Source of the DNA: Pseudomonadales bacterium
GTDB taxonomy: Bacteria; Pseudomonadota; Gammaproteobacteria; Pseudomonadales; IMCC2047
Direction of reading: 5' to 3'
NCBI GenBank assembly: GCA_965230515.1
Contig: OZ246007.1
Span: 3,251,012-3,315,011 of the forward strand
DNA: 64,000 bases
Below the pieces are notes generated by a model. The model had not been told where the DNA came from and made no database searches. It saw nothing but the letters and a program-made list of their open reading frames with translations. Positions 33,926-49,379 of this stretch are shown here, piece by piece; within the stretch, counting starts at the first letter, position 1; the number at the start of each line of letters is the position of its first letter. The position numbers and the translations under genes were made by a program.

Positions 33926-34848
33926 GCGAAGCGACGGCTGTGAACGATAAATCTCCGCTGATATTTTCCCTGCACAATCATCCGTTGGTTGAATCTCTCG
34001 CTACTGCGATTGGTGGTCAGCGAGGCGACTTCAATGCCCGAAGGTTTCCCGATGGGGAGTCCTATCTGCGTATTCATTCTGCTGTAGAAAATCGCGCCTG
34101 TATTGTGGTGGCTGACCTGTCACACCCAAACACCAAATATCTACCGTTGTTGTTTTTATTGGAAACACTGCGGGAGCTGGGAGCAACGCAAGTGGGGTTA
34201 GTGGCGCCTTACCTCAGTTATATGCGTCAGGATCGCCGTTTTGTCGATGGGGAAGCGGTTACTTCACGTATTTTTGCCAAGTGCCTTTCTCAACATGCTG
34301 ATTGGCTGGTCACCGTCGATCCACATTTGCATCGCTATCATTCCCTGGATGAAATCTATTCCATACCCAGTCGTGTTGTGCAAGGGGCTCCGGCATTGGC
34401 GCACTGGCTCAAAACGCAAAGCAACCTATTGTTGGTTGGGCCGGACAGCGAAAGCGAGCAATGGGTTTCTGAGATTGCTGCCTTTAGTCAACATCCTTTT
34501 GAGATTGGAGAAAAACAGCGCTTCGGGGATCGCCATGTCGAAGTGATGCTGCCCGACATCAACGAATTCAGGGATAGAACGGCTGTGATTATCGACGACG
34601 TAATCTCCAGTGGGCAGACGATTTTGGAATGTGTTAAAACACTTCAGTCCAAAGGAATCGACAAGATTCAGTGTGTGGCGGTACACGGCATATTTGCCGA
34701 TCACTCCGATAAAACCTTACTGGCCTCAGGCCTGAGCCAGCTGGTCACGTCCAATACCATCCCCCATCCCTCCAATGCTATCGATATTACGTCGCAACTG
34801 ATTGCGCCCGTGATCAGCATGCTTAAATTGCCAGGACAATCATTATGA
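33922..34848 (+). CDS. ribose-phosphate diphosphokinase (PRPP synthetase)-like protein, divergent
   Basis: 308 aa with the PRPP-binding loop AVIIDDVISSGQTI. The R5P region reads VTVDPHLHRY, whereas E. coli Prs reads TVDLHAEQ. ATGA overlap with the upstream gene, and a GAGGAGG SD. Confidence 0.8.
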   Translation: MSEATAVNDKSPLIFSLHNHPLVESLATAIGGQRGDFNARRFPDGESYLRIHSAVENRACIVVADLSHPNTKYLPLLFLLETLRELGATQVGLVAPYLSYMRQDRRFVDGEAVTSRIFAKCLSQHADWLVTVDPHLHRYHSLDEIYSIPSRVVQGAPALAHWLKTQSNLLLVGPDSESEQWVSEIAAFSQHPFEIGEKQRFGDRHVEVMLPDINEFRDRTAVIIDDVISSGQTILECVKTLQSKGIDKIQCVAVHGIFADHSDKTLLASGLSQLVTSNTIPHPSNAIDITSQLIAPVISMLKLPGQSL

Positions 34849-36200
34849 AAATCACCTTTATCGGCGGTACCGAGACCGTTACCGGTTCAAAATTTCTGCT
34901 GGAAACCGACACGACAACTGTATTAGTCGATTGCGGTTTGTTCCAGGGCTACAAGTGGCTGCGGGAGCGCAATTGGCAAACCTTGCCTCTGGACATCGAC
35001 AAACTGGATGCGGTGCTGCTCACTCACGCACATCTGGATCACTCCGGCTATATCCCGGTGCTATACAAGTGTGGCTTTCGCGGCCCGGTGTTTACCCATC
35101 ACGCCACCAAGGCCCTGTGTCAGATCTTATTGGCCGACAGCGGCCATATCCAGGAGGAAGACACCAGGTATTACAGCAAACATAAACTGGGCAAGCACGC
35201 TCACCCTGAGTCGCTTTACGACCGCCAAACGGCGGAAGCCAGCATGACGCTATTTCAGTCCGTGGAGTTTGATGAACAGATCGAAGTCGGAGATATCCGT
35301 TTTTATCTGCAGCCCGCCGGGCATATTCTCGGTGCCGCCAGCATTATCGTGGAAGCGGAAGGGAAACGAATCGGCTTTTCTGGTGATGTCGGTCGCTTCG
35401 ATGATGTGCTGATGAACCCCCCTCGGCTATTGCCGGAGCTGGATCTGCTGTTGATGGAGTCCACTTACGGCAACCGCCGGCACGACACCCAAGATCCGTT
35501 TCAGCAGTTGGCGGAAATTGTTAACCGTGTCGCTAAAAGCGGCGGCGTGCTGCTGGTCCCGGCCTTTGCGGTAGGGCGGGCGCAGGCCTTGCAACATCTG
35601 TTGGCGACCCTGATGGATCAGGACGATATCCCCAAAATGCCGATCTATCTCGACAGCCCCATGGCGATCAAAGTATCGGATATTTTTTGCCAGTTCAGTG
35701 ACCAGCATCGGTTAAACCACGAGCAATGCTACCGCATGTGCGACTCCATCACTTATACCCGTACGGTGGATGATTCCAAGGCGATTGCGGGACAGGCTTT
35801 CCCCCATATTGTTATCGCTGGCAGCGGTATGGCTACCGGGGGTCGTATTCTCCACCATTTTAAACGCCTGTTAGGCAGCTCTAAAACCACGGTGCTGTTT
35901 ACCGGTTATCAGGCGGGCGGCACTCGCGGCGCAAAAATGCTGGAGGGTGTCGAGAGCATCAAAATTCACGGTGAGTGGATTTCAAATAATGCGCAGGTGG
36001 CGGTCTTGCACGGTTTGTCCGGACACGGCGATTACATGGAGATCGAGCAATGGCTCAAACAATCCGCATTACAAAAAAACATGTCGATTCAACTGGTTCA
36101 TGGTGATCCCGATGCCCTGGAAGGCATGCGCGATCATTTGCGACGCACCACGGCCTTCGATGTAGAGGTCGCCGGCTATCAAACAATACTCAAACTGTAG
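34845..36200 (+). CDS. MBL-fold beta-CASP nuclease (RNA-specificity-domain type)
   Basis: 451 aa with the HxHxDH motif LLTHAHLDHSGYIP, later GHILGAA, ESTYG and a C-terminal SGHGD typical of beta-CASP enzymes. ATGA overlap with the upstream gene. Confidence 0.82.
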   Translation: MKITFIGGTETVTGSKFLLETDTTTVLVDCGLFQGYKWLRERNWQTLPLDIDKLDAVLLTHAHLDHSGYIPVLYKCGFRGPVFTHHATKALCQILLADSGHIQEEDTRYYSKHKLGKHAHPESLYDRQTAEASMTLFQSVEFDEQIEVGDIRFYLQPAGHILGAASIIVEAEGKRIGFSGDVGRFDDVLMNPPRLLPELDLLLMESTYGNRRHDTQDPFQQLAEIVNRVAKSGGVLLVPAFAVGRAQALQHLLATLMDQDDIPKMPIYLDSPMAIKVSDIFCQFSDQHRLNHEQCYRMCDSITYTRTVDDSKAIAGQAFPHIVIAGSGMATGGRILHHFKRLLGSSKTTVLFTGYQAGGTRGAKMLEGVESIKIHGEWISNNAQVAVLHGLSGHGDYMEIEQWLKQSALQKNMSIQLVHGDPDALEGMRDHLRRTTAFDVEVAGYQTILKL

Positions 36201-36209
36201 GAGCCTGTT

Positions 36210-36668
36210 ATGCAAATTGAAACCTTAAAGGATGTGCTGAACTGGACCCGCGATTTTCATCAGCATTTGGCGAGCTGTTTACACCACTGCGACGACCGGA
36301 ATCAAAGTGAACGTGCACGACTTTTGCTGGAGTACCTTGCTGAGCATGAACAAAAACTGGTTGCGGTGCTTGACAGCTTTGCACAAAGCGCGGGCGTTAA
36401 TGCATTGAACACTTGGTGTTACGAATATCTCGATAAACACCCCATTGTTCGTCATGTCCAATGCGATCAGCCTTTCACGCAAATGAACACCGAGGAAATC
36501 ATTTCGGAAATAACAGGGCAGCACAGCCAGGTGGTAGACCTTTACCGCTATTTGTACAGCCGGGCGGAAACCGATTCAGCGCGAAACTTATTGGCTCAGT
36601 TATTGGACTTGGAGGAACATGAAACGATGCGTATGACGCAAAGCGCCAACCGCCTGGAAGATATATAA
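36210..36668 (+). CDS. hypothetical helical protein (His/Cys-containing), last gene of the four-gene operon
   Basis: 152 aa. GGAG SD lies 9 nt after the upstream stop. All-helical-looking, with FHQHLASCLHHCDD. No family recognised. Confidence 0.5.
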   Translation: MQIETLKDVLNWTRDFHQHLASCLHHCDDRNQSERARLLLEYLAEHEQKLVAVLDSFAQSAGVNALNTWCYEYLDKHPIVRHVQCDQPFTQMNTEEIISEITGQHSQVVDLYRYLYSRAETDSARNLLAQLLDLEEHETMRMTQSANRLEDI

Positions 36669-36750
36669 ATCGCAAGTTTTATTGCTGTTGTTTTAACACA
36701 AAGAGTATCTGTCATTGCAATTATTTATTACCAAGTAAAGGGGATACCCC

Positions 36751-37005
36751 ATGAATCTTAATACCTACAAATTTTGTTTGGCGTCAGCATTCAGTTTTTC
36801 AGTTATTTGGATTGTTTGCAGTCTATTGGTCTGGCTCTTTCCGGAAATGATGATGAGTATGGCGGGTGATATGTTGCACGGCGACCTGTCGTCAATTGAC
36901 TGGCAGCTTTCTTTTAAGGGTGTTTTGACAGGTCTGGCGGCATGGGCCGTAACTGCAGGCGTTATCGGATGGCTGTTGGCATTTTTTTACAACAGGCTCT
37001 TATAA
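36751..37005 (+). CDS. small two-TM membrane protein (DUF5676-like)
   Basis: 84 aa with two hydrophobic helices. AAAGGGGA SD upstream. Confidence 0.45.
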   Translation: MNLNTYKFCLASAFSFSVIWIVCSLLVWLFPEMMMSMAGDMLHGDLSSIDWQLSFKGVLTGLAAWAVTAGVIGWLLAFFYNRLL

Positions 37006-37107
37006 GTAGAGCTGGATGCCACAAATTAAAGGCTAGGGTGCTATGCCGGGGTATCCGGAAGTACAGCATGAGATTAACTTAAGATTACGGATGAGACAGG
37101 CGTAATT

Positions 37108-38427
37108 ATGACAGAGCATTCGCATCACGAAAGATCGGCACAATATCGAGAAAATAGCCTGACATTAGTGGGTGCCGTGTCGATGGGTACCGGTGTAATG
37201 ATCGGCGCCGGCATATTGGCATTAACGGGGCAAATAGCCGAGCTGGCCGGTGCGCTATTTCCCTTGGCCTTTCTTGCCGCTGCGATAGTGACGGCTTTTA
37301 GTGCGTATTCCTACGTGAAAATGTCAAATGCCTTTCCTTCCGCGGGAGGAATTGCGATGTTTCTGGAAAAAGCCTATGGCCGAGGCGTAATAACGGCTGC
37401 CGGTGCATTGTTCATGTATTTTTCGATGGTTATCAATGAAAGTCTTGTCGCTCGTACATTTGGCGCATACAGTACTCAGTTGTTCGACATTGATCCGGGC
37501 AGCTGGATCGTACCGGCCCTGGGTGTAGGGCTACTGTCGTTTGCTTTTCTGATCAATATCTCCGGCAATCGCCTGATCGGAATATTTTCTCTGTTGATGG
37601 CTTTTATCAAGGTTGGCGGTATTGCCATTTTTGCCATTGCCGGATTGTCGCTGGCCGGGTTTTCACTGGAAATTAACGCTATCGAAATCAGGGAAACCTC
37701 TGCCGAAGGGTTTCTGGCGGCAATGGCGCTAGCGATCCTGGCCTATAAGGGATTTACCACCATCACCAATAGCGGTTCGGAGATTGTTGAGCCACACCGT
37801 AATGTCGGACGGGCAATCATTATTTCGATTGTTATCTGCGTACTCGTATATTTTTTGGTGGCATTGGCGGTAGCAGGCAATCTTAGCTTAGACGAAATTA
37901 TCGCTGCAAAGGATTTTGCACTGGCGCAAGCTGCTCGTCCTGCTTTCGGTGATTATGGCTTATGGTTTACCGTGGTGCTGGCCATTATAGCCACGGTTTC
38001 CGGCGTCATTGCCAGCGTGTTTGCGGTATCGCGCATGCTGGCCATGCTGACCGATATGAAGCTGGTTCCGCACAGCCATTTAGGCATGCCCGGCGATATC
38101 CAGAAACACACACTGGTCTACACCATCGTATTGGCGATGTGCCTGACGGTATTTTTTGATTTAAGTCGTATCGCTTCATTGGGAGCAATTTTTTACCTGA
38201 CGATGGATATCGCTGTGCATTGGGGCATATGGCGCTACTTGCGCAAGGAGATTAATGCCAACGCTTTTATTCTTATGGCTGCGATCATTTGCGATCTGAT
38301 GGTGCTGGGCGCATTTCTGATGGTCAAGGCTAAAACCGACATGTTGGTTATCTATGCCGCCCTAATCGGTATGCTGTTTATCCTCATTGGTGAGCGATTT
38401 TTTATACGGTCAAAAAATGAAAACTAA
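37108..38427 (+). CDS. APC-superfamily amino acid/polyamine permease
   Basis: 439 aa with about 12 TM helices and an N-terminal GAVSMGTGVMIGAGILALTG typical of APC transporters. Confidence 0.78.
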   Translation: MTEHSHHERSAQYRENSLTLVGAVSMGTGVMIGAGILALTGQIAELAGALFPLAFLAAAIVTAFSAYSYVKMSNAFPSAGGIAMFLEKAYGRGVITAAGALFMYFSMVINESLVARTFGAYSTQLFDIDPGSWIVPALGVGLLSFAFLINISGNRLIGIFSLLMAFIKVGGIAIFAIAGLSLAGFSLEINAIEIRETSAEGFLAAMALAILAYKGFTTITNSGSEIVEPHRNVGRAIIISIVICVLVYFLVALAVAGNLSLDEIIAAKDFALAQAARPAFGDYGLWFTVVLAIIATVSGVIASVFAVSRMLAMLTDMKLVPHSHLGMPGDIQKHTLVYTIVLAMCLTVFFDLSRIASLGAIFYLTMDIAVHWGIWRYLRKEINANAFILMAAIICDLMVLGAFLMVKAKTDMLVIYAALIGMLFILIGERFFIRSKNEN

Positions 38428-38539
38428 GGTTATTAAGGATAGAAATCCCCACAGTGCTTGGCCCTAGATAGGCACAGCAGCCATGTGTCTATTGAACCAG
38501 GATCTGACAACCCATTGGAGTAGAAAAAGGTAATCCATT

Positions 38540-40366
38540 ATGAAAGATAAAAAGGCAGAAAAAAAAGGCAAAGCGCACTGCGAAAATACTGAAATATGTG
38601 TGTTTTGCGGACAGCGAAAGCATTTGCCGGCGTTCGAACATGATACGCAAAAGATTTCCGCATTCGATCGTTTTCTGCACACCTCCATGGCAAAAATTTT
38701 TGGTCTATCACCGGCTTCGCTGGCGGTAGCTTATTTTGACTGGCTGACTCATTTGGCCATCGCCCCCGGTAAGCAGGTGGAACTGGCGCAAAGCGCCGGG
38801 GAAAAAACCGTGCTATTAGCTAATTATGTCGCGCAGCAGCTGCAGCATGGCGAAGAGGAACCCGAATGTTGCGTGTATCCGCTACCGCAGGATCGGCGCT
38901 TCAAGGATGAAGGTTGGGAGAGCTGGCCCTACAATCTGTATCAGCAGGCGTTTTTGCTGACCGAGCAATGGTGGCAGGAAGCGACTTGTAGTGTACGAGG
39001 CGTCACGCGGCATCATTCGGATGTCATGCCATTCCTCACCCGCCAGCTGCTGGATATGTTTTCCCCGCTGAACTTCCCCATGACTAATCCGTGCGTGGTA
39101 AAAGCAACCCGGAAAGAGAGGGGGATGAATTTCGTCAAAGGGGCGCAGAATTTTCTTGAGGATTTGTCACGGCAAATCACCCAGGCGCCGCCGGCCGGTA
39201 CGGAAGACTACAGAGTAGGTGAAAATATTGCCGTCACCAAGGGCAAGGTCGTTTATCGAAACCGGCTGATCGAGCTAATTCAGTATGCACCAGCGACCGA
39301 AGAGGTGTATGCCGAGCCAATACTCATCGTGCCTGCCTGGATCATGAAATATTATATCCTGGATTTGTCACCGGAAAATTCCCTGGTGAAATACCTGGTC
39401 GATCAGGGCCATACCGTGTTTATGATCTCGTGGAAAAACCCCGATGCGGATGACCGCGAACTGGGCTTTGAGGATTATCTCAACCTGGGTGTGATGGAAG
39501 CATTAAAGGCGGTCACCACTATCCTACCGAAGCAGCAGGTGCATACGGTTGGTTACTGTCTTGGCGGCACGCTGCTCGCGGTGGCGGCAGCGGCAATGGC
39601 GCGCGATGCGGATGAACGCTTAAAAAGCATAACGCTGTTTGCCGCACAGGTGGATTTTGAAGAGGCTGGGGAATTGCTGCTGTTTATCGATGAGAGCCAG
39701 TTGGCCTTTCTGGAAGATACCATGTGGGAGCAGGGCTATCTTGATGCCACCCGTATGGCTGGCGCCTTCTATATGTTGCGCTCGCATGACCTGATCTGGT
39801 CGCGTATCGTCGAACAGTACCTGTTGGGCAATCCCGCTGATCTAAACGATCTGATGGCATGGAACGCTGATGCGACCCGTATGCCGTACCGGATGCACTC
39901 GGAATATCTACGCAGTCTGTTTTTGAATAACGACCTGTCCGAGGGGCGGTTTAGCGTTAGTGGTAATCCGATTGCCCTGACGGATATCCGGGCACCTATC
40001 TTTGCCGTCGGCACCCAGCGTGATCATGTCGCTCCCTGGCAGTCTGTCTATAAGATTCGCCATTTTACCGATACTGATGTCACCTTTCTGTTAGCCAGCG
40101 GCGGGCATAATGCGGGGATCGTCAGCGAACCGGGGCATCCTCATCGCAGCTATCAGCTGGCTAAGTCCAACAGTACTGATAAATATATCGGGCCCGATGC
40201 ATGGTGTGATCATACGCCGCTACAGGAAGGTTCGTGGTGGCCGGCCTGGTGTCAGTGGCTGGCTGAGCAGTCTGGGGGGAAAATGAAACCGCCGAAAATG
40301 GGGGCGCCGCAGCAGGGTTATAAAGTCTTGGGGGATGCACCCGGTGAATATGTGATGCTGAAGTAG
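38540..40366 (+). CDS. phaC: class I poly(R)-hydroxyalkanoate synthase
   Basis: 608 aa with the N-terminal PhaC pattern GLSPASLAVAYFDWLTHLAIAPGKQ, the lipase-box with catalytic Cys GYCLGG, and an alpha/beta-hydrolase core. Confidence 0.87.
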   Translation: MKDKKAEKKGKAHCENTEICVFCGQRKHLPAFEHDTQKISAFDRFLHTSMAKIFGLSPASLAVAYFDWLTHLAIAPGKQVELAQSAGEKTVLLANYVAQQLQHGEEEPECCVYPLPQDRRFKDEGWESWPYNLYQQAFLLTEQWWQEATCSVRGVTRHHSDVMPFLTRQLLDMFSPLNFPMTNPCVVKATRKERGMNFVKGAQNFLEDLSRQITQAPPAGTEDYRVGENIAVTKGKVVYRNRLIELIQYAPATEEVYAEPILIVPAWIMKYYILDLSPENSLVKYLVDQGHTVFMISWKNPDADDRELGFEDYLNLGVMEALKAVTTILPKQQVHTVGYCLGGTLLAVAAAAMARDADERLKSITLFAAQVDFEEAGELLLFIDESQLAFLEDTMWEQGYLDATRMAGAFYMLRSHDLIWSRIVEQYLLGNPADLNDLMAWNADATRMPYRMHSEYLRSLFLNNDLSEGRFSVSGNPIALTDIRAPIFAVGTQRDHVAPWQSVYKIRHFTDTDVTFLLASGGHNAGIVSEPGHPHRSYQLAKSNSTDKYIGPDAWCDHTPLQEGSWWPAWCQWLAEQSGGKMKPPKMGAPQQGYKVLGDAPGEYVMLK

Positions 40367-40377
40367 GAGAAAGGTAC

Positions 40378-41148
40378 ATGAACGATACATTGCAAGGGAA
40401 GAAAGGGCTGGTGGTCGGCATCGCCAACGCGCATTCGATCGCCTGGGGCTGTGCCAAGGCGTTTCATGCCGCCGGGGCGGAACTGGCGATTACTTATCTG
40501 AACGCAAAGGCCGAGCCCCATGTACGGCCGCTGGCGGAGAAGGTGAACGCGCCCATTGTTGCAGCACTGGATGTGACGGACGATGCACAGATGGAGGGGT
40601 TGTTTGAGGTTATCGATAATACCTGGGGCAAACTGGACTTTCTATTGCATGCCATCGCCTTCGCGCCGCAGCAGGATTTGCATGGGCGGGTAACGGATTC
40701 CTCCCGTCAGGGCTTTTTGCAGGCGATGGATATTTCTTGCCATTCCCTCGTCCGCCTGGCGCGCCTGGCTCAGCCGCTGATGCGGGATGGCGGTTGTTTG
40801 CTGACCACGACCTACTATGGTGGTGAAAAGGTGGTTGAACATTACGGGGTGATGGGGCCGGTCAAAGCCGCTCTGGAAGGTACAGTCAAATATTTGGCGG
40901 CGGAGTTAGGCGCCAATAAAATACGGGTCAATGCGCTATCGCCTGGACCCATTGCTACCCGCGCCGCCAGTGGTATCGCTCATTTCGATCAACTGCTGGC
41001 AATCGCTCGCGAAAAATCACCGAATCATGAATTGATCTGTATCGATTGTGTCGGTGCTTATGCCCGGTTTCTGGTCAGTGACGAGGCGCGGCTGGTCACC
41101 GGCAGTACGGCCTACATCGATGCCGGATTTAATATTATGGCGACCTAA
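40378..41148 (+). CDS. fabI: enoyl-[acyl-carrier-protein] reductase (NADH), FabI type
   Basis: 256 aa. GKKGLVVGIANAHSIAWGCAKAFHAAGAELAITY matches the FabI N-terminus pattern. SDR Tyr/Lys region present. Confidence 0.85.
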   Translation: MNDTLQGKKGLVVGIANAHSIAWGCAKAFHAAGAELAITYLNAKAEPHVRPLAEKVNAPIVAALDVTDDAQMEGLFEVIDNTWGKLDFLLHAIAFAPQQDLHGRVTDSSRQGFLQAMDISCHSLVRLARLAQPLMRDGGCLLTTTYYGGEKVVEHYGVMGPVKAALEGTVKYLAAELGANKIRVNALSPGPIATRAASGIAHFDQLLAIAREKSPNHELICIDCVGAYARFLVSDEARLVTGSTAYIDAGFNIMAT

Positions 41149-41197
41149 GGAGGCGCACCGTGAATCAATTGAGTGGAGAGATTGCCGGTATTTTGGC

Positions 41198-41219
41198 GAT
41201 CACTGTGATCGTAATCACG
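41198..41219 (+). promoter_or_regulatory. candidate CRP/FNR-family binding site upstream of the pta-ackA-xfp block
   Basis: TGTGA-TCGTAA-TCACG (41204-41219) contains the perfect palindrome GTGAT-CGTA-ATCAC. An overlapping palindrome GATCAC-T-GTGATC lies at 41198-41210. No clear -10 at the canonical distance. Confidence 0.3.
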
Positions 41220-41278
41220 CCGTTACAGTATGACCACTGTGCGCACTGCAAGGAGATAATCGATGGGAGCAGTCAGGT

Positions 41279-42703
41279 ATGGATGGACTAATTGAAAACA
41301 AGGTTTTCAATGAAATAGATATTGGGGATACCGCCAGTGTCGAGCATATGCTGACGCAAAGGGATATCCAACTGTTTGCCCTGATGTCGGGTGATGTGAA
41401 CCCGGCCTATATGGATGAAGGATTCGCCAAAAGCGATATGTTTCACAAGATAATCGCCCACGGCATGTGGGGTGGCTCATTGATTTCAACCGTGCTAGGC
41501 ACCCAGTTACCGGGGCCGGGCACCATTTATCTCGGCCAGACGTTACGGTTTTTAAAGCCTGTCGGCATCGGTGACAGGATCACTGCGCGAATTACGGTTA
41601 GCGGGAAAGACGACAGTACCCAGCGGCTGATTCTGACGTGCGTCTGTCTTAATCAGGACGGCAAGGAAGTGATTACTGGTGAGGCAGAGGTGATTGCGCC
41701 CACTGATAAAGTCAAACGTAAGCGGGTCAGGTTGCCGGAGCTGGAGTTTAAGTTTAAGGAAGAGAAATGCCCTAATCACCACCGCGTGATCTGTATGGCC
41801 GACGGACTGCCACCGGTCAGGACGGCGATTGTGCATCCGGTTGATCGTTATTCTTTGCGTGGTGCGATTGCCGCTGCGGAGGCAGGGATCATTGAAGCCA
41901 TACTGGTGGGGCCGGAAGATAAAATCCGCGCTATGGCGCAGGCAGAAGATATTGACCTGTCACCCTATGCCATCGTTGCAACACCACACAGCCATGCAGC
42001 GGCGGAAACCGCTGTGCAGTTGGCGCGTGAAGGCAAAGTCGAAGCCCTGATGAAGGGCCATCTGCGCACCGATGAGCTGATGTCTGCCGTAATCAATAAA
42101 ACCAAGGGTTTGTGTACGGGGCGGCGCATGAGCCATATCTTCATGGCTGATGTGCCCGCCTATCCCCGGCCACTTTTTGTGACCGATGCGGCTATTAACA
42201 TCAATCCGAGGTTAGCGCAGAAGAAGGATATCGTACAAAACGCGATTGACCTGTTTCTATGTGTTGAGCAATTCACCCCACGGGTAGCGCTGTTGTCGGC
42301 GGTGGAGACGGTCAATGAGGAAATACCCTCTACCCTGGATGCCACGGCACTGTGCAAAATGGCCGAGCGCGGACAAATTACCGGTGCATTGCTTGATGGC
42401 CCGCTGGCGTTTGACAATGCAATTTCCGAGAAAGCCGCTGCGATCAAAGGTATCCAATCACAGGTCGCCGGCAAGGCGGATATTCTGGTAGTGCCCGATC
42501 TGGTGTCGGGCAATATCCTGCTCAAGCAGCTGACCCTGCTTTCCGGCGCTTATACGGCGGGTATCGTGATGGGGGCACAGGTGCCGATTATTCTGACCAG
42601 CCGCGCCAGCACGGAACTGGCGCGCAAAGCGTCCTGCGCCTTGGCACTGCTCACGGTGCGTGGTGGCAAAGCCGAGTGTCAACATGGCAAGGAAAGCACA
42701 TGA
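41279..42703 (+). CDS. pta: bifunctional MaoC-like (R)-specific enoyl-CoA hydratase / phosphate acetyltransferase
   Basis: 474 aa. An N-terminal hot-dog MaoC region (FALMSGDVNPAYMDEGFAKS...IAHGMW) is fused to a PTA_PTB domain (GKADILVVPDLVSGNILLKQL). Confidence 0.85.
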   Translation: MDGLIENKVFNEIDIGDTASVEHMLTQRDIQLFALMSGDVNPAYMDEGFAKSDMFHKIIAHGMWGGSLISTVLGTQLPGPGTIYLGQTLRFLKPVGIGDRITARITVSGKDDSTQRLILTCVCLNQDGKEVITGEAEVIAPTDKVKRKRVRLPELEFKFKEEKCPNHHRVICMADGLPPVRTAIVHPVDRYSLRGAIAAAEAGIIEAILVGPEDKIRAMAQAEDIDLSPYAIVATPHSHAAAETAVQLAREGKVEALMKGHLRTDELMSAVINKTKGLCTGRRMSHIFMADVPAYPRPLFVTDAAININPRLAQKKDIVQNAIDLFLCVEQFTPRVALLSAVETVNEEIPSTLDATALCKMAERGQITGALLDGPLAFDNAISEKAAAIKGIQSQVAGKADILVVPDLVSGNILLKQLTLLSGAYTAGIVMGAQVPIILTSRASTELARKASCALALLTVRGGKAECQHGKEST

Positions 42704-43890
42704 GTGACAGCATTATCGTATTTAATGCTGGATCGTCCAGCCTAAAATTCTCGTTGTTCGATGCGACCACCAGCGATCTGCAATTCCATGGTGAAGTGGA
42801 GGATATAGCGAGTAAACCCAGTTTGACCGTCTATGACGCGAGTAAAACAACCGTCTTTGAAAAAGCCGGACTTTACTGTAGCCATGAAGCGGCCTTGTCC
42901 GCGTTGCTCAGATGGCATGCAGACCATGAGGACACCGCCGAAATTGTGGCCGTTGGCCATCGAGTGGTGCACGGGGGCAAGGAGTTTGCCGAATCCGTCC
43001 TTATTACCGCAACGATCATCGAAAAACTGGAAACACTTATCCCGCTCGCACCCTTGCACCAGCCGCACAACCTGGAAATTATTAAAGTCTTTGCGGCGTT
43101 GCACCCAACTATCCCGCAAATAGCCTGTTTCGATACCGCCTTTCACCGTACCCAGCCACGCACAGCGGAACTGTTTGCGCTGCCGTGTCGCTACAGCGAT
43201 GAAGGCGTACTCCGTTATGGTTTTCACGGATTATCCTATGAATATATTGCCTCCGTGCTGCCCGGCTATGCCGGTAAAAAAGCGCAAGGTCGGGTGATCG
43301 TTGCTCATCTGGGTAACGGCGCCAGCATGTGTGCGATGAAACAGCGCAGGAGTGTAGCCACTACCATGGGTTTTACCGCGCTTGACGGACTGATGATGGG
43401 GACACGCTGCGGTGCGCTTGACCCCGGTGTGGTGCTGTATCTAATGCAGGGAAAAGGCCTGACGGTAGAGGAGGTTACCCGGTTGCTCTATCAGGAATCG
43501 GGGCTAAAGGGCGTATCGGCAATGAGTCACGATATGCGGGACCTGTTGGCAAGCGATGCGCTTGCGGCAAAAGAAGCGATCGAATTATTTTGCTACCAGG
43601 CAGCCAGACAACTGGCCGGACTGATCCCCGCACTTGGCGGACTCGACACACTGGTCTTTACCGCCGGGATCGGCGCGGGTTCGCCCGAGATTCGCAAAAA
43701 CATCTGCGCGCGGTTGTCTTGGCTAGGACTGCGGTTGGATAACCAGGCTAACCAAGCACAAGGGCACAGCATCCACTCACCGGAAAGTACGGTGGATCTG
43801 TATGTCATTCCAACCAATGAAGAACGCACCATTGCCCGCGCGACGATGAAAATGGTCGCCGCCAAAGGAGGTTGTAATGAGAAACGGTGA
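42700..43890 (+). CDS. ackA: acetate kinase
   Basis: The ATG at 42700 overlaps the pta stop (ATGA). MSDSIIVFNAGSSSLKFSLF, GHRVVHGG and FHGLSYEY are hallmark AckA motifs. Confidence 0.92.
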   Translation: MSDSIIVFNAGSSSLKFSLFDATTSDLQFHGEVEDIASKPSLTVYDASKTTVFEKAGLYCSHEAALSALLRWHADHEDTAEIVAVGHRVVHGGKEFAESVLITATIIEKLETLIPLAPLHQPHNLEIIKVFAALHPTIPQIACFDTAFHRTQPRTAELFALPCRYSDEGVLRYGFHGLSYEYIASVLPGYAGKKAQGRVIVAHLGNGASMCAMKQRRSVATTMGFTALDGLMMGTRCGALDPGVVLYLMQGKGLTVEEVTRLLYQESGLKGVSAMSHDMRDLLASDALAAKEAIELFCYQAARQLAGLIPALGGLDTLVFTAGIGAGSPEIRKNICARLSWLGLRLDNQANQAQGHSIHSPESTVDLYVIPTNEERTIARATMKMVAAKGGCNEKR

Positions 43891-43923
43891 AGGTCAAAAA
43901 GCGGTTGATAACGGGAGATAAAG

Positions 43924-46299
43924 ATGTTTCCGACAAATGATGAAGATTTACACCGCATCCGGCAGCGAGCGTCCCTGTACCGGGAGCGCTATCCGGCGTT
44001 CGCCCACTGGGCCGAGGGTTACGGCGTCATAAAACATAGTGACGAAACTCAGATCCGGGTGTTTGATTTGTGCCAGCAATTGTTGTGTAAGGACCGCTAT
44101 GATCAGCTTGATGGCCCGCTGGCTATTTTTTGTGCGGCGGACCGCCTGACCAGCGCCGCGATGTGGTTGGTGGCACACATGACATACGCTTCTAGGGTTT
44201 ATCTCGACGGTCGCGCATTGACGGCTGAGGACTTCAAGGCCAACCCGCAGGGACATACCGGTGGCTCGCTGAATATGGCGCCAGCCTATGTCGGCTATAT
44301 GGTCGCCAATACATTGGCTGGCACAACCCGCAGCTGGTTGATGGGGCAGGGGCACTGTGTCGCCGCAATCGACTCGGTCAACGTGCTGTTGGGCAATTTA
44401 TTGCCAGAACAGGCCGCTCGATATGGTTTGACGAATCAGGGTTTATCGCATCTGATCGAGGACTTTTACAGCTATGCCATTAACCAGGAAGGCCGCCCCG
44501 GCGTGCCCTTAGGCAGCCATGTCAATCCCCACACGGCTGGGGGTCTTATCGAAGGGGGGTATCTGGGTTTTGCCGAATTGCAGTATGTGCATATGCCGCT
44601 GCCGGGTGAACATCTGGTGGCGTTTCTCAGCGACGGTGCGTTCGAAGAACAACGCGGCAGCGACTGGGCCAGCCGCTGGTGGCGAGCGGAGGACTGTGGT
44701 CTGGTGACGCCGGTAATGATCGCCAATGGTCGTCGTATAGACCAGCGATCCATCATGTATCAACAAGGTGGTTTGGAATGGTTTTTTCAGCACCTGCAAC
44801 TGAATGGGTTCTATCCGATCGCCATTGATGGCAGGGATCCGGCGGCGTTTATTTGGGGAGTTTTTGAATCCGAAGCCCGTTTGCAGGCCTGCAGCGCACA
44901 GGTTCAGGCTGGCCATATGAGTTATCCGGTGAAATTACCTTACTTGATTGCCGAAACGATAAAAGGCTATGGTTTTTATGGTGAGGGAACCAATGCCGCA
45001 CATGGTGCGCCGCTACCTGAAAATCCTAAGTATGACCTTTCATCCCGTGGCTTGTTTAATGAGTCTGTAGCAGGTTTATTTGTATCTGAAAAAAAGCTCA
45101 GGCAGGCCGTATCGCAATTAAACACGCATGATAAAGATGCCCGGCTGCCGGAGAAGGATCATCCACTCTGCCGGAGGAATATTTCTCTTAGCTCAATCCC
45201 GGCATTTCAATGGGTAACCGTGGGTGCCGAATATTCCCCCATGGAAGCGATTGACAGGCAGTTCATTGCTCTAGTGTATGCTAATCCTCAATTGAGGGTA
45301 AGGGTTGGCAATCCCGATGAATTGCGCAGTAACCGTATGGGACATACGCTTGATAAGCTGAAACACCGTGTGCTGAAACAGGAAGACGGCGTGGCCGAGT
45401 CGATTCAGGGTGCTGTTATCACAGCCCTGAATGAAGAAGCTGTGGTGAGCGCAGCGCTAGGTAATAAAGGCGGAATTAACCTCGTGGTTTCCTATGAAGC
45501 CTTTGCCGTGAAAATGCTGGGAGCGATCCGTCAGGAGATCATTTTTGCACGTCACCAGAAAGAGTTAGGCCGTGCCCCTCAGTGGTTGTCGGTACCGGTA
45601 ATCGCTACATCGCATCTCTGGGAGAACGGTAAAAACGAACAGTCACACCAGGATTCATTATTTGGCGAGGCCTTAATGGGTGAAATGAGCGATGTAGCGC
45701 GTGTGGTATATCCCGCCGATGCGAATAGCGGCATCGCCTGTTTAAACGCCTGTTATCGGACACAGGGACAAATCTGGGCGCTCACGGTACCGAAACAACA
45801 GGTGAAGACCATTTTTAGCAAACAACAGGCGCAGCTCCTGGTGAGCCAGGGTGCTATAACCCTGGGGGAGAGCAACAATGCCGAAGTGCAGCTGGTTGCG
45901 GTGGGGGCTTATCAGCTCGATCTTTGTATCCAGATCCAACAAGAGCTTAGCGAAAATGGTATTTCTAGCTTTGTCACCTATTTGATGGAACCCGGCCGTT
46001 TTCGTAAGCCCAGAGATCGATCGGAACAGGCCTTTGTTAGCAGCGTTTCAGCTAAAGAAGCGCTGTTTCCTTCGAACATAGCCCTGCGTGTGTTTGTCGC
46101 TCACTTGCGCCCGGAAACCCTGCTTGGTGTGTGCAGGCCTTTGGACCTGGGACCGCAGCGCTGTATTGCCTTCGGCTACACCAACCAGGGCGGCACGTTG
46201 GACACCAACGGGCTGTTTAAGGCCAATGGCTGTGAACTTGAAACTGTAGCAGTTGCTGCGATACGGAAGTTAGTCCTTCTAAAAAAGAGTGAGTTATGA
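43924..46299 (+). CDS. xfp: phosphoketolase (xylulose-5-P/fructose-6-P)
   Basis: 791 aa, the typical Xfp length. TPP-enzyme motifs include GHTGGSLNMAPAYVGY and EGGYLGFAE. Confidence 0.9.
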   Translation: MFPTNDEDLHRIRQRASLYRERYPAFAHWAEGYGVIKHSDETQIRVFDLCQQLLCKDRYDQLDGPLAIFCAADRLTSAAMWLVAHMTYASRVYLDGRALTAEDFKANPQGHTGGSLNMAPAYVGYMVANTLAGTTRSWLMGQGHCVAAIDSVNVLLGNLLPEQAARYGLTNQGLSHLIEDFYSYAINQEGRPGVPLGSHVNPHTAGGLIEGGYLGFAELQYVHMPLPGEHLVAFLSDGAFEEQRGSDWASRWWRAEDCGLVTPVMIANGRRIDQRSIMYQQGGLEWFFQHLQLNGFYPIAIDGRDPAAFIWGVFESEARLQACSAQVQAGHMSYPVKLPYLIAETIKGYGFYGEGTNAAHGAPLPENPKYDLSSRGLFNESVAGLFVSEKKLRQAVSQLNTHDKDARLPEKDHPLCRRNISLSSIPAFQWVTVGAEYSPMEAIDRQFIALVYANPQLRVRVGNPDELRSNRMGHTLDKLKHRVLKQEDGVAESIQGAVITALNEEAVVSAALGNKGGINLVVSYEAFAVKMLGAIRQEIIFARHQKELGRAPQWLSVPVIATSHLWENGKNEQSHQDSLFGEALMGEMSDVARVVYPADANSGIACLNACYRTQGQIWALTVPKQQVKTIFSKQQAQLLVSQGAITLGESNNAEVQLVAVGAYQLDLCIQIQQELSENGISSFVTYLMEPGRFRKPRDRSEQAFVSSVSAKEALFPSNIALRVFVAHLRPETLLGVCRPLDLGPQRCIAFGYTNQGGTLDTNGLFKANGCELETVAVAAIRKLVLLKKSEL

Positions 46300-46877
46300 A
46301 AAGTTTTAATGATAATCGACGCAGATTTTTAACCGTTGCCACCTCCTTTGTCGCTGGTGCTGGCGCAGTGGGCCTGGCGATACCCTTTGTGCAATCCTGG
46401 ACTCCCAGTGCAAAAGTCAGGTCTTCGGGGGCGCCGGTTAAGGTGGATGTCTCGAAAATTGATCCTGGAGCCATTATCACCGTGGAATGGCAGCGCAAAC
46501 CGGTCTGGGTGTTGCGACGTACCAAAGATAACATTGAAGAACTTAAAGAGCCTGCCCACAAGAGCCTACTCAGGGATGCGGACTCCGAGATGAATCAGCA
46601 GCCGGATTATGCAAAAAACGCCTACCGCAGTATCCGTGGCGATATCTTTGTGGTGGTAGGTATTTGTACGCACCTGGGTTGTGTGCCGAACTATAAACCC
46701 GAGGGGATAGCGGGTGTTGATCACGCATTATTTTACTGCCCCTGTCACGGCTCCAAGTTCGATCTGGCCGGGCGGGTATTTAAAGGGGTGCCGGCCCCTA
46801 CCAACCTGATTATTCCTCCGCATCAGTACTTGGGAAACAACGTATTGGAGATCGGTTCCGATGCCACCACCAGCTAG
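46296..46877 (+). CDS. petA: Rieske [2Fe-2S] subunit of the ubiquinol-cytochrome c reductase type (orphan PetA paralogue)
   Basis: 193 aa with Tat signal NRRRFLTVATS, Rieske boxes CTHLGCVP and CPCHGSKFDLAGR, and bc1-type KPVWVLRRT. ATGA overlap with xfp. No cytochrome b or c1 gene follows. Confidence 0.85.
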   Translation: MKSFNDNRRRFLTVATSFVAGAGAVGLAIPFVQSWTPSAKVRSSGAPVKVDVSKIDPGAIITVEWQRKPVWVLRRTKDNIEELKEPAHKSLLRDADSEMNQQPDYAKNAYRSIRGDIFVVVGICTHLGCVPNYKPEGIAGVDHALFYCPCHGSKFDLAGRVFKGVPAPTNLIIPPHQYLGNNVLEIGSDATTS

Positions 46878-46930: not shown

Positions 46931-47911
46931 ATGAACGATAAGTTTGAACAATCATTGCCGGACATACCCATTTCACCGCGTCAGATTGCTTTGGGTATTG
47001 TCATCGCGCTCGCGGTGTATCTGGGCTACAGCAGTTTTTACACAGTCTCGGCGGAATCCGTCGGCGTCGTACAGCGCTTTGGTCACTACCACTATGTCGT
47101 CGATCCTGGCCTGCATTTCAAAATTCCCTTCGGTGTTGATCAGGTGGTTCAGGTCCCAGTGAAACGTCAGCTCAAAGAAGAATTTGGCTTCGGTACACCC
47201 GGCGCGACGTTTACGCGACAGATGTCCGATCCCAGGGAATGGGAGCTGGAAACCACCATCGTTACCGGAGACTTGAATGCGGCGCTGGTGGAGTGGGTGA
47301 TTCAGTTTCGCATTGAGAACGCCTTCGACTTCCTATTCAAAGTGCGCGATCCGGGGGATGCCCTGCGGGACATTTCCGAATCGGTGATGCGCGAAGTTGT
47401 CGGTGATCGTACGGTAGATGAAGTGTTGACCATCGGTCGTCAGGACATTGAGGCCAATGCCCAGACCAAGATGCAGGAGGTGGTTAACCTCTATGAAATG
47501 GGCTTGCGCATAGATCAGGTGCAGCTCAAGAACGTCAATCCGCCGAAACCGGTAAAGGCTTCCTTTGATGAAGTCAACGAAGCGCAGCAGGAACGTGAGC
47601 GCATGATTAATGTAGCCCGCGGCGAGTACAACAAGGCCGTACCCCAAGCCAGGGGTACGGCGGAACGCTCCATCCAGGCAGGGGAAGGGTATGCGATCCA
47701 GCGTGTCAATCAGGCGGAAGGGGACGCGGCCAAATTTAACGCGCTGCTGGCTGAATATATCAAGGCACCGGGGGTTACCAAGCGGCGACTCTACCTGGAA
47801 ACCCTGCAGGAGGTATTGCCAGTCGTGAAAAACAAAATTGTGCTCGACGATAAAGCAGCGTCCGTTTTGCCGTTGCTGCAACTCAACGCCATGCAAGGAG
47901 AACCCCGATGA
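46931..47911 (+). CDS. hflK: SPFH/band-7 protein, HflK-like FtsH modulator
   Basis: 326 aa with an N-terminal TM, then FYTVSAESVGVVQRFGHYHYVVDPGLHFKIPFGVDQV (HflK pattern). Confidence 0.8.
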   Translation: MNDKFEQSLPDIPISPRQIALGIVIALAVYLGYSSFYTVSAESVGVVQRFGHYHYVVDPGLHFKIPFGVDQVVQVPVKRQLKEEFGFGTPGATFTRQMSDPREWELETTIVTGDLNAALVEWVIQFRIENAFDFLFKVRDPGDALRDISESVMREVVGDRTVDEVLTIGRQDIEANAQTKMQEVVNLYEMGLRIDQVQLKNVNPPKPVKASFDEVNEAQQERERMINVARGEYNKAVPQARGTAERSIQAGEGYAIQRVNQAEGDAAKFNALLAEYIKAPGVTKRRLYLETLQEVLPVVKNKIVLDDKAASVLPLLQLNAMQGEPR

Positions 47912-48861
47912 ACAGATTCATCTACATCGCGCTGGCGGTATTATTTCCGCTACTGATCGTTGCCTATGAAGCGTTCTATACCGTGAACGAAACCGAGCAG
48001 GTGATCATGACGCAGTTCGGTAAACCCGTGGGCGGAATTGTTAATGAAGCCGGCCTGAAATTAAAGATTCCCTTTATCCAGAAAGTCAATCGTATCGAAA
48101 AACGGATATTGCTTTGGGATGGTTCCGCCAACGATATGCCGACCAAGGACAAGCTTTATATCACGGTTGATACCTTCGGCCGCTGGCGCATCAAAGATCC
48201 GCTGCAGTACTTCCTGCGGTTACGGGACGAGCGCAGTGCCCAGTCCCGGCTGGAGGATATTCTCGGCAGTGAAACCCGCAATGCCGTCGCCAAACACGAA
48301 TTGATTGAAATTGTCCGAACCACCAAAGACAGAACGCCTGCTGTTGATCCCCTGCTGGCAGAAGCGGACGTTGGAAAATTGCTACCGATTAAGCGCGGCA
48401 GGCGGCAAATTGAAGAGGATATTTTTTCCGCCGCGTCCGTAAAACTGGCGGAATTCGGTATTGAGTTGCTCGATATCCGGTTTAAGCGGATTAACTATAA
48501 CGAAAGCGTCCGGCAGAAAATCTACGCCAGAATGATCAGTGAACGCCAGCAGATTGCTGAGCGGTTTCGTTCCGAAGGTGCCGGTGAGGCCGCCAAAATT
48601 ATCGGCAACAAGGAAAAAGACCTGCAGCGTATTGAGTCCGAAGCGTACCGAAAAATTCAATCTATTCAAGGTGTGGCCGATGCCAAAGCCACAGAAATCT
48701 ATGCGGCGGCCTACAACCAAACCAAGTCGTCACGTGAACTGTATGACCTTGTGAAGACATTGGAAACCTACAAGCAGGTGATTGATCCTTCCACCACGCT
48801 GGTATTAACCACCGAAAGCGAGTTGTACCAGTTGTTGAATGGCGTGGGCCAGCAACCCTGA
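47908..48861 (+). CDS. hflC: SPFH/band-7 protein, HflC-like FtsH modulator
   Basis: 317 aa. FYTVNETEQVIMTQFGKPV...GLKLKIPFIQKV. 4-nt overlap with hflK. Confidence 0.8.
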   Translation: MNRFIYIALAVLFPLLIVAYEAFYTVNETEQVIMTQFGKPVGGIVNEAGLKLKIPFIQKVNRIEKRILLWDGSANDMPTKDKLYITVDTFGRWRIKDPLQYFLRLRDERSAQSRLEDILGSETRNAVAKHELIEIVRTTKDRTPAVDPLLAEADVGKLLPIKRGRRQIEEDIFSAASVKLAEFGIELLDIRFKRINYNESVRQKIYARMISERQQIAERFRSEGAGEAAKIIGNKEKDLQRIESEAYRKIQSIQGVADAKATEIYAAAYNQTKSSRELYDLVKTLETYKQVIDPSTTLVLTTESELYQLLNGVGQQP

Positions 48862-48871
48862 GGAGGTTTTG

Positions 48872-49369
48872 ATGAACAAACTGGAATTCACGATTCACTG
48901 CCCTGTTTGTTATATGACAAAAATCAACCGATCACTGTTGGTGAACTATCAGGGCGTTGATCACTATTTTTGTTCGACCCAGTGTCTGGAGCGATTTAAG
49001 TCCCATCCACATCTGTTTGTGGGTGACCCCCAACATGGCAAGTCACCCAAGCAGAAAGACCAGGTGGTGTTAAAGAAGCGTCGCATTCGATTTTGCGAAG
49101 CCATCAGCGATCCCCTTAAAGCAGAACTGGAAGCCTCACTGCAGATGCTGATGGGTGTTGAAGCAATTGTGTTTGAAGGTGAAGACTTGTACGTGACTTA
49201 CGACCTCATTCAAGTCTCTCTGGAGGATATTGAAAAAGCCATCGAGAAAGCGGCAGTTGGGTTTCGCAAAGGTGTGTTGGATCAGGTTAAACGGGGACTG
49301 ATTCATTACAGCGAGGAGTGTGAACTCGACAACCTTGCACACCTGACCAAGGACGGTGGTTGTCACTGA
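48872..49369 (+). CDS. YHS/TRASH-type zinc-finger protein fused to an HMA-like domain with a C-terminal CH
   Basis: AGGAGG lies 5 nt before the ATG. CPVCYM...YQGVDHYFCSTQCLERFKSHPHLF is a YHS/TRASH motif. The C-terminal half is paralogous to 32015-32359 and ends GGCH. Confidence 0.6.
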   Translation: MNKLEFTIHCPVCYMTKINRSLLVNYQGVDHYFCSTQCLERFKSHPHLFVGDPQHGKSPKQKDQVVLKKRRIRFCEAISDPLKAELEASLQMLMGVEAIVFEGEDLYVTYDLIQVSLEDIEKAIEKAAVGFRKGVLDQVKRGLIHYSEECELDNLAHLTKDGGCH

Positions 49370-49379
49370 GGAAAATGCA

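Follow-up and report, generated by a model that had tools for sequence, protein, structure and literature searches.

In Burkholderia, the gene arrangement phaC-fabI-(phaJ::pta)-ackA, with a fused phaJ-pta gene, was described as 'group D' of the clusters for polyhydroxyalkanoate (PHA) synthesis (PMC8231600), and it is related to an ORF-pta-ackA-fabI operon of Sinorhizobium meliloti that is, as cited in the same paper, induced by PhoB. The phaC1-fabI-bi-pta-ackA locus of Halomonas and Cobetia is the same cassette (PMC8686332), and it is also found on genomic islands of Pseudomonas aeruginosa, with a PhaC of class I.3 (bioRxiv 10.1101/2025.03.12.642780). Loci of the lxa type (see below) contain the cassette as well. 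Clusters of this type often reside on islands or plasmids and are often devoid of phaA. A stretch of 64,000 nucleotides from a Pseudomonadales bacterium (contig OZ246007.1, in the following called the window) contains, at positions 38540-46299, these four genes and directly behind them a gene of the phosphoketolase (XFP) family, and this five-gene block was compared with its closest described relatives.

The second system for comparison was the low-oxygen-activated (lxa) locus of Burkholderia cenocepacia J2315. At low oxygen, its ackA gene (BCAM0293) is induced 75-fold, a short-chain dehydrogenase/reductase (SDR) gene annotated as acetoacetyl-CoA reductase (BCAM0296) 94-fold, a class I PHA synthase gene (BCAM0297) 224-fold, a phosphate acetyl/butyryl transferase gene (BCAM0298) 116-fold, and the gene of a metal-dependent RNase (BCAM0300) 30-fold. 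The locus also carries a cation ATPase gene (BCAM0318), its deletion reduces anoxic survival, and a phosphoketolase is not listed among the lxa genes (all PMC3721108). The third system was the pair of canonical phosphoketolase (Xfp/Xpk; PDB 3ahc, 3ai7, 8io8) and acetate kinase.

According to the comparison, known parts are arranged here in a new way, and the block does not represent a new system. The XFP-like gene originally belongs to the island that surrounds the block, the other four genes are a separate, already described cassette, and both were joined by recombination. Our reading of the whole block is that it is accessory cargo of an integrative and conjugative element (ICE), a composite made by recombination between islands, the proteins of which would meet at acyl-phosphate. 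The probability of this reading is put at about 0.5.

The five genes and their closest relatives

Domain searches against Pfam and NCBIfam were performed with nearly all open reading frames (ORFs) of the window of at least 120 aa and with all ORFs of at least 200 aa. As stated in the original prediction, which was made from the DNA sequence, five consecutive genes are present, and their identities were verified at the domain level. All five ORFs are co-directional on the + strand, and according to the ORF list the ends of the block are exactly at 38540 and 46299:

38540-40366, + strand: PhaC, class I-like PHA synthase, 608 aa (Pfam PhaC_N 4.7e-57, PHBC_N, Abhydrolase_1)
40378-41148, + strand: FabI-type NADH enoyl reductase, 256 aa (NF005717 413.7, cut-off 337)
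41279-42703, + strand: fusion of a MaoC/PhaJ-like domain and a Ptb-like PTA_PTB domain, 474 aa (NF006045 702 bits, cut-off 282)
42700-43890, + strand: AckA, kinase of the acetate/propionate family (Pfam Acetate_kinase 1e-112; TIGR00016 377, cut-off 293)
43924-46299, + strand: divergent XFP-family (phosphoketolase-like) thiamine diphosphate (ThDP) enzyme, 791 aa (Pfam XFP 4e-41, XFP_N 4e-11)

The first four genes encode the same four proteins as the group D, Halomonas/Cobetia and P. aeruginosa clusters, and they are likewise co-directional and tightly spaced. The PHA synthase has the lipase box and the triad, the MaoC and PTA_PTB domains form a single polypeptide (MaoC::Pta in the following), and the kinase gene and fabI are adjacent and co-directional. 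Only 11 bp separate phaC and fabI, and the likely start of AckA, the ATG at 42700, shares the bases ATGA with the upstream TGA stop, as had been predicted. The gene order varies among the described clusters, and in contrast to them the window has no phaB, phasin or phaR gene, its cassette is embedded in an ICE stress and metal island, an XFP-family gene is directly next to it, and a motif His of the MaoC domain is changed to Tyr. The predicted lack of phaA and phaB was confirmed, as neither a thiolase nor a PhaB-type reductase was found among the window ORFs of at least 200 aa.

The top NCBIfam match of PhaC was the class I PHA synthase model TIGR01838 with 534.6 bits, which is under its cut-off of 622.65. 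The lipase box GYCLGG comprises residues 338-343, and in the alignment with the PHA synthase of PDB 9knj (342 bits) the Cys, Asp and His of the catalytic triad all align. FabI contains the motif Y156-x6-K163 and matched FabI structures in the PDB with about 250 bits. No other enzyme of the block consumes NADH. MaoC plus PhaC had been proposed as a reductant sink, and this proposal had to be given up, because the pair uses up no reducing equivalents. That FabI is a stand-alone biocide-tolerance gene was also considered and held unlikely, in view of its recurrent neighbour MaoC::Pta (14 of 26 loci, see below).

In the fusion protein, the Pfam domain MaoC comprises residues 21-116 and PTA_PTB residues 241-445. 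The best PDB match of the phosphotransacylase domain was the phosphate butyryltransferase 7vg9 with 211 bits, while a branched-chain phosphotransacylase reached 114 bits and the canonical Pta 1qzt 50 bits. By these scores the domain is Ptb-like and far from canonical Pta, and thus the predicted 'Pta' persists as a phosphotransacylase, with a phosphate butyryltransferase as its nearest relative. The nearest PDB structure of the MaoC domain is PhaJ (5cpg, 126 bits). The predicted (R)-enoyl-CoA hydratase was thereby supported as a MaoC/PhaJ-like domain, but not in its motif. Instead of an intact hydratase-2 motif G-D-x-N-P-x-H (GDVNPAH), the window has GDVNPAY. At residues 38-49 of the MaoC domain the window reads GDVNPAYMDEGF and the closest homologues read GDVNPAHLDEEY, i.e., there are four changes in five residues, including His to Tyr. 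Of 80 homologues, 73 have His at motif position 44, 4 have Tyr and 3 have Gln, and the 92% identical homologue P0122 keeps the His.

A general decay of the cassette in the window was considered and rejected. A leave-one-out analysis of private changes at otherwise invariant columns yielded one change in total, G282A in AckA, and none in MaoC::Pta, PhaC and FabI. Therefore, H44Y is a local feature and not a sign of general decay. AckA is 82% identical to the AckA of the metagenome contig L082, 46-49% to the cassette AckAs of Sphingopyxis and Ralstonia, and 30-33% to the AckA paralogues that usually precede XFP-like genes. In another locus, L084, the AckA is 57% identical to an island-type AckA.

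The fifth gene had been predicted to encode a phosphoketolase. It does belong to the XFP family, as the Pfam XFP and XFP_N matches exceed the gathering scores and the catalytic motifs are largely kept, but it is not canonical: the best curated phosphoketolase model, NF003619, gave 111.7 bits against a cut-off of 962, and no match to Pfam XFP_C was reported. The homology to canonical phosphoketolase extends over the full length, with an alignment to PDB 3ahc across residues 81-780. The N-terminus has about 75 additional aa, and the identity to a canonical Xfp is about 23% (alignment A3). In this alignment H111, H144, H199, EGGxLG at 210, D237-G238, N268-G269 and H360 are conserved, as are YEAF at 524 (E525), N571, SHQ at 574 (H575) and K624. 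Thus, the protein keeps the ThDP/Mg motif (xDG...NG) as well as the catalytic histidines and the glutamate of YEAF, and ackA is adjacent, whereas the signature motifs are altered (EGGYLGF, SDGA). From these residues, the protein is probably an active ThDP lyase of the phosphoketolase type.

Relatives of the XFP-like protein have the database names 'xylulose 5-phosphate 3-epimerase' or 'phosphoketolase family protein'. They are encoded in at least 551 genomes (scan with one genome per species) and on 15 plasmids, 10 of which are conjugative. The family is tight, with about a dozen full-length representatives at 50% clustering, and most of the 151 matches at E 1e-30 or better are fragments.

The recombination tract and the partners of both parts

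The origin of the block was analyzed with blastn and with nucleotide identities in sliding segments of 500 bp, and the window was compared with L001, a related island in GCA_021773395.1, and with L082. The identities were as follows:

31-34.5 kb: L001 99-100%; L082 no match to 34 kb, then about 72%
34.5-36 kb: L001 86-92%; L082 70-75%
36.5-44.0 kb: L001 no match; L082 76-90%
44.0-44.5 kb: L001 71%; L082 83%
44.5-46.5 kb: L001 96-98%; L082 80-84%

These identities delimit the tract, which is listed here with the two genes directly upstream of the block:

34500-44500, no strand: recombination tract with the cassette (left edge at about 34.5-36 kb)
36751-37005, + strand: small membrane protein of the DUF5676 family, 84 aa (90% identical to an L082 protein carrying PF18926)
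37108-38427, + strand: amino-acid permease, 439 aa, which came with the cassette (Pfam AA_permease_2; 93% identical to the copy at the same position in L089)

The window is an L001-like island into which about 8-10 kb from a sister island of the L082 type were introduced. Where the window has the 7.5-kb segment without a match, L001 has 1.8 kb with a DUF5676 gene and another acetate-kinase paralogue (30% identical), and the amino-acid permease is not found at the corresponding position. The tract has therefore replaced the island's own ackA paralogue, and also after the replacement an ackA is immediately upstream of the XFP-like gene. The right crossover is located about 0.5 kb inside the XFP-like gene, which is chimeric: its first approximately 0.5 kb belong to the donor tract and the remainder to the island backbone. 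The gene order of the window is also found in the metagenome contigs L082, L083 and L089. The replacement relative to L001 shows directly that the cassette is accessory and exchangeable. The five genes had been predicted to be a portable module. They are indeed accessory, located on an ICE and missing from a sister island with flanks of 92-99% identity, and homologous parts are present on conjugative plasmids; however, with a breakpoint inside the XFP-like gene, the five are not one inherited module.

The partners of the XFP-like family were counted in 56 species-level loci with at least 20 kb of sequence. TP-like and PRS-like genes (see below) were found in 46 loci each, and beta-CASP metallo-beta-lactamase (MBL) genes, any AckA and P-type ATPases in 41 loci each. 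GAPDH of either type was present in 10 loci and FabI in 2, and neither PhaC nor MaoC::Pta in a single one. AckA next to an XFP-family gene is thus a conserved pairing. An example is the Acidovorax plasmid p1-T1, on which the XFP-like gene is next to copper resistance and accompanied by LemA, TPM, MBL, TP, PRS, a type II GAPDH, a cyclopropane-fatty-acid (CFA) synthase, MerR and AckA.

For the cassette, 26 metagenome loci with adequate flanks were available. The neighbours of MaoC::Pta were AckA in 19, FabI in 14, PhaC in 10 and an XFP gene in 4 of them. Homologues of MaoC::Pta are abundant, with 194 plasmid records. Megablast of the block against plasmids gave only short matches of 73-77% identity. 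In L084, P-type ATPases are followed by PhaC, a KR-type SDR, FabI, MaoC::Pta and AckA. A conjugative Sphingopyxis plasmid has PhaC, MaoC::Pta and AckA, surrounded by a universal stress protein (USP), Zn-dependent alcohol dehydrogenases, TP-like, PRS-like, a truncated haemoglobin and a PAS sensor, and a Ralstonia megaplasmid has PhaC, an ABC efflux system, MaoC::Pta, AckA and a B12-dependent ribonucleotide reductase. Both plasmid contexts resemble the lxa locus.

Cassette and XFP gene come together in three independent layouts, each of which is one co-directional array. The first is that of the window (L082, L083, L089). In the second, the order is P-type ATPase, FabI, MaoC::Pta, AckA, PhaC, YHS, NhaA, XFP-like and MBL (L090, L091, L098). 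The third, L119, consists of PstSCAB, an esterase, PhaC, FabI, MaoC::Pta and AckA, followed by a canonical phosphoketolase (NF003619 1371 bits). Two branches of the XFP family thus follow the same cassette, which argues for a functional link at acetyl-phosphate and makes a coupling of cassette and XFP enzyme at this metabolite plausible. The link would be optional, because the cassette is missing from all 56 loci of the closest XFP-like relatives.

In L119, positions 1621-5846, directly upstream of the PhaC-FabI-MaoC::Pta-AckA-phosphoketolase genes, encode pstSCAB and an alpha/beta-hydrolase that is weakly similar to intracellular PHA depolymerase. This position hints at control of the L119 version of the cassette by the Pho regulon.

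The most conserved partners of the XFP-like gene are three genes that are located upstream of the block; they are listed here with a small conserved gene behind them:

32420-33925, + strand: AMP-phosphorylase-like protein of the thymidine-phosphorylase family, TP-like (NF003338 650, cut-off 434)
33922-34848, + strand: PRPP-synthetase-like protein, PRS-like (NF005537 361, cut-off 322)
34845-36200, + strand: beta-CASP metallo-beta-lactamase RNase-like protein (Pfam)
36210-36668, + strand: conserved protein, 152 aa (no Pfam or NCBIfam match)

The trio was noted in the window and in L001, L002, L169, L170, L086 and L171. On a Methylophaga plasmid, genes for a MerR regulator and an HMA protein precede the trio and an XFP gene is missing, and Methylophaga plasmids share island segments of 84-90% identity. 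No function of the trio was described in the literature that was searched. The TP-like protein scored 479.7 with the AMP_phos model TIGR03327 (cut-off 535), and its best PDB matches were 4ga5 and 4ga4 with 335 bits, compared to about 140 bits for pyrimidine nucleoside phosphorylases. It carries an N-terminal extension of about 97 residues. Both structures are the AMP phosphorylase of T. kodakarensis.

In many related islands, the gene of the 152-aa protein is located between the beta-CASP gene and the pair of ackA and XFP-like gene, and it is also present in L001, L082, L170 and on the Methylophaga plasmid. On the latter it is annotated as 'ATPase'; it is rich in His and Cys and looks all-helical by eye. 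A role as sugar-phosphate isomerase was considered for it and dropped, based on this appearance and the lack of a family match. In L169 (JGI 3300063059, a contig of 1.09 Mb) the TP/PRS/beta-CASP/XFP-like set is surrounded by genes for an archaeal-type AdoMet synthetase (PF01941), a DegP-like protease, a USP and PPK2.

The island and its comparison with lxa and tLST

The location on an ICE beside metal resistance had been predicted, and it was supported by conjugation proteins that scored above the cut-offs and by metal-efflux genes, both of which are encoded upstream of the block. Features of the window outside the tract are:

300-4599, + strand: conjugative-transfer genes for a TraU-like protein, a TIGR03755 protein and TraG_N (Pfam TraU, TraG_N; TIGR03756 378.9, cut-off 188; TIGR03755 488.4, cut-off 270)
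46296-46877, + strand: orphan Rieske iron-sulfur protein of the ubiquinol-cytochrome c reductase type (TIGR01416 221, cut-off 97)
about 54591-55586, + strand: type I GAPDH (Pfam Gp_dh_N, Gp_dh_C; TIGR01534 356.9, just under the cut-off of 367.2)

The transfer genes include family-specific conjugation proteins of ICEs of the ICEclc/PAGI-2 type. The window contains no tRNA gene (tRNA scan) and no integrase gene, and the ends of the element are located outside of it. A chromosomal ICE fits, because proteins identical to those of the window are recorded on a contig of 3.58 Mb. The region 5891-29729 encodes two metal-efflux systems of the resistance-nodulation-division type, of which the one on the - strand is czc-like and the one on the + strand has an adaptor protein with CusF and HMBD domains. 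The region further encodes a cation diffusion facilitator (CDF) transporter, a DUF411 protein, a cytochrome c, a porin, and a MerR regulator with an HMA P-type ATPase.

All genes between about 30.7 and 63.5 kb have the same orientation (+ strand) and are separated by short gaps. The array begins with an ICMT-like methyltransferase, TP-like, PRS-like, beta-CASP, the 152-aa protein, DUF5676, the amino-acid permease and the five-gene block. It continues with Rieske, HflK, HflC, a YHS protein, FtsH, MgtC/DUF4010, LemA and two TPM proteins, which are followed by GAPDH, CFA synthase, a second ICMT-like protein, cardiolipin synthase, fatty-acid cis/trans isomerase and a Na/H exchanger. The start of the Rieske gene overlaps the stop codon of the XFP-like gene by four bases, and a Rieske gene follows the XFP-like gene also in L001, L002, L005, L015, L017, L082 and L170. 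There is no cytochrome b or c1 gene near this orphan gene. The part from 46931 to 54544 encodes HflK, HflC, the YHS-domain protein, a FtsH xenologue, and then MgtC/DUF4010 and LemA-TPM-TPM. In L001, deletions or truncations affect the genes of HflK (101 aa), HflC and FtsH (319 aa). Positions 55526-61149 contain cargo for the remodelling of membrane lipids, i.e., CFA synthase, the ICMT-like protein, a PLD-type cardiolipin synthase and the fatty-acid cis/trans isomerase (CTI, 742 bits). Methyltransferases that depend on S-adenosylmethionine (ICMT-like, CFA synthase) recur in related islands.

GAPDH had been predicted about 8 kb downstream on the same strand, and a type I GAPDH is indeed present at a distance of about 8.3 kb. 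Its ORF is listed as 54429-55586, but the TTG start overlaps the preceding TPM gene and Gp_dh_N does not start before residue 57, which makes a true start near 54591 probable. With the model for ArsJ-associated GAPDH it scored 308. This GAPDH could take glyceraldehyde 3-phosphate from a phosphoketolase-type reaction.

The predicted similarity to lxa was checked by comparing the gene content and was found to be partial. Like the window, lxa is an accessory locus with ackA, an SDR, a PHA synthase, a phosphate acetyl/butyryl transferase, a metal-dependent RNase and a cation ATPase; the survival role is that of lxa. A phosphoketolase, in contrast, is not listed for lxa (PMC3721108). Hallmarks of lxa are six USPs, alpha-crystallin, Anr-like regulators, a class II ribonucleotide reductase, a ribokinase and the motif TGA-N6-TCA. 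None of these was found in the window; the proteins, with the Anr-like regulators taken as CRP-type regulators, were searched with Pfam and NCBIfam among the ORFs given above.

Regulatory signals were also searched. The pattern TTGAT-N4-ATCAA of FNR/Anr-type boxes, with up to one mismatch, was not enriched, with 5 matches in the window compared to 3.0 expected, and none of them is in the intergenic DNA upstream of the block. A scan of 30-48 kb for sigma-70 promoters and terminators gave counts no higher than in shuffled sequence, so that operon boundaries were not callable. When the upstream DNA of phaC was aligned for five loci, no conserved motif emerged, and the Rfam scan of the window had no matches. 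Homologues point to hypoxia (lxa), phosphate limitation (S. meliloti; the pst genes in L119) and a metal-stress context as potential inducers.

The loci tLST (transmissible locus of stress tolerance) and TLPQC (PMC7685784, PMC8290217) are similar to the window in being mobile stress islands with xenologues of ftsH, cardiolipin synthase and a KefB-like exchanger. However, their sHsp20 and ClpG/ClpK core and the YfdX/HdeD/Trx/DegP modules are not present in the window, and Clp or HSP20 domains were not detected among the ORFs tested (nearly all of at least 120 aa). Membership of the window in this group was therefore rejected; the tLST papers also mention none of the five genes.

Possible roles of the block

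According to our reading, the five proteins would meet at acyl-phosphate. The ThDP enzyme would convert a phosphorylated ketose to acetyl-phosphate, probably together with glyceraldehyde 3-phosphate, and AckA would use acyl-phosphate and ADP for the formation of ATP. The Ptb-like domain would interconvert acyl-phosphate and acyl-CoA, FabI would reduce enoyl-CoA and thereby re-oxidise NADH, and PhaC would store (R)-3-hydroxyacyl units as polymer, or these units would be freed from the polymer. The fusion of hydratase and Ptb and the neighbouring FabI suggest the route (R)-3-hydroxyacyl-CoA to enoyl-CoA to acyl-CoA to acyl-phosphate to acid and ATP. Because the phosphotransacylase is Ptb-like and FabI is the sole reductive step, an electron sink of the C4 (butyrate) type is suggested instead of, or beside, PHA. 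In sum, the block would supply ATP for maintenance and balance the redox state under limited respiration or phosphate, as reported for homologous clusters; this physiological role, in hypoxia or phosphate stress, is drawn from the homologues only.

Several results weigh against this reading. The XFP-like protein is far below the curated cut-offs for phosphoketolase and its signature motifs EGGYLGF and SDGA deviate, so it has to be regarded as a divergent family member. The hydratase step may be weak or lost in the window copy, because the motif His at position 44, which is catalytic in PhaJ, is Tyr. PhaC and MaoC::Pta were found at 0 of 56 XFP-like loci, and the adjacency of cassette and XFP-like gene could be a by-product of island shuffling. 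A clean split into a lineage of 'cassette AckA' and a lineage of 'island AckA' had to be rejected, as the identities are mixed. Lastly, no FNR/Anr box was found upstream of the block, and neither a USP gene nor a CRP-type regulator among the window ORFs tested.

The alternative that survives best is that there is no functional coupling at all, i.e., that the XFP-like enzyme works only with TP-like, PRS-like, the beta-CASP RNase and AckA, and that the PHA/FabI cassette is independent cargo that landed next to it by recombination. It fits to the partner counts, with 46 loci each for TP-like and PRS-like and none for PhaC or MaoC::Pta, to the clear recombination tract with breakpoints in flanking conserved genes, and to the free shuffling of modules among these islands. 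Nevertheless it is judged unlikely, because cassette and XFP gene are co-directional in three arrangements, one of which has a canonical phosphoketolase, because 4 of 26 cassette loci have an XFP gene while about 0.5% would be expected (our rough estimate for one gene per genome within 9 kb), and because an ackA was kept immediately upstream of the XFP-like gene despite the replacement.

A second alternative is that the purpose of the block is carbon storage and not ATP formation or anoxic survival. AckA and the phosphotransacylase would activate acetate or short-chain acids, acetyl-phosphate from the XFP-like enzyme would be converted to acetyl-CoA without loss of carbon, and PhaC would store PHA in nutrient imbalance, e.g., under phosphate limitation. 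This is the interpretation of those who described the cassette in Cobetia and Halomonas (PMC8686332) and in Burkholderia (PMC8231600), and it is in line with the L119 version, in which the cassette and a canonical phosphoketolase are behind the pstSCAB phosphate transporter, and with the PhoB induction of the related S. meliloti operon, as cited in PMC8231600. However, in the absence of phaA and phaB the island genes alone cannot bring acetyl-CoA to polymer, and FabI would have no role in this route, although it is a frequent partner (14 of 26 loci). Also the Ptb-like character of the phosphotransacylase domain does not fit well, and the presence of AckA at 41 but PhaC at none of the 56 XFP-like loci is in better agreement with ATP formation. 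Storage as the purpose is thus rather doubtful.

The third alternative takes TP-like, PRS-like, the beta-CASP RNase, AckA and the XFP-like enzyme as the real unit, with the PHA/FabI cassette as an optional redox add-on. RNA or nucleotides would be broken down by a mobile bacterial pathway to ribose phosphate, which the ThDP lyase would cleave to acetyl-phosphate, probably together with glyceraldehyde 3-phosphate, and ATP would be formed by substrate-level phosphorylation in non-growing, stressed cells. The conserved company of these genes suggests that nucleotide ribose might feed the XFP-like enzyme. There is a parallel to the archaeal pentose-bisphosphate pathway (AMP phosphorylase, ribose 1,5-bisphosphate isomerase, RuBisCO), since the TP-like protein is nearest to an AMP phosphorylase (4ga5) and is tied to a C-C-cleaving enzyme from the metabolism of pentose phosphates. 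In contrast to that pathway, neither a ribose 1,5-bisphosphate isomerase nor a RuBisCO was found in the window and the related loci, the AMP_phos score is below the cut-off, and the terminal enzyme would be a ThDP lyase. In the literature searched, no paper connects the proteins of this set with each other or the archaeal pathway with phosphoketolase, and searches that joined phosphoketolase with thymidine/AMP phosphorylase or with PHA synthase operons retrieved nothing relevant. This alternative is considered improbable; if it were true, the archaeal pentose-bisphosphate pathway would have a bacterial counterpart that ends with a phosphoketolase.

That the genes are simply the ordinary housekeeping pta, ackA, phaC and fabI copies of the cell, in this region by chance, is very improbable, because they lie between ICE transfer genes and metal-resistance cargo, are missing in a sister island with near-identical flanks, and PhaC and the XFP-like protein score under the curated cut-offs of the standard families.

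Taken together, the reading of the block as composite ICE cargo with a common metabolite is preferred. The work on lxa has tied a gene set of this kind to the anoxic persistence of an obligate aerobe, and with the repeated meeting of the cassette with phosphoketolase-type genes, acetyl-phosphate is indicated as the node that both have in common. As the cassette has been swapped between ICE-borne metal and stress islands by homologous recombination, a trait for energy maintenance can travel together with metal resistance.

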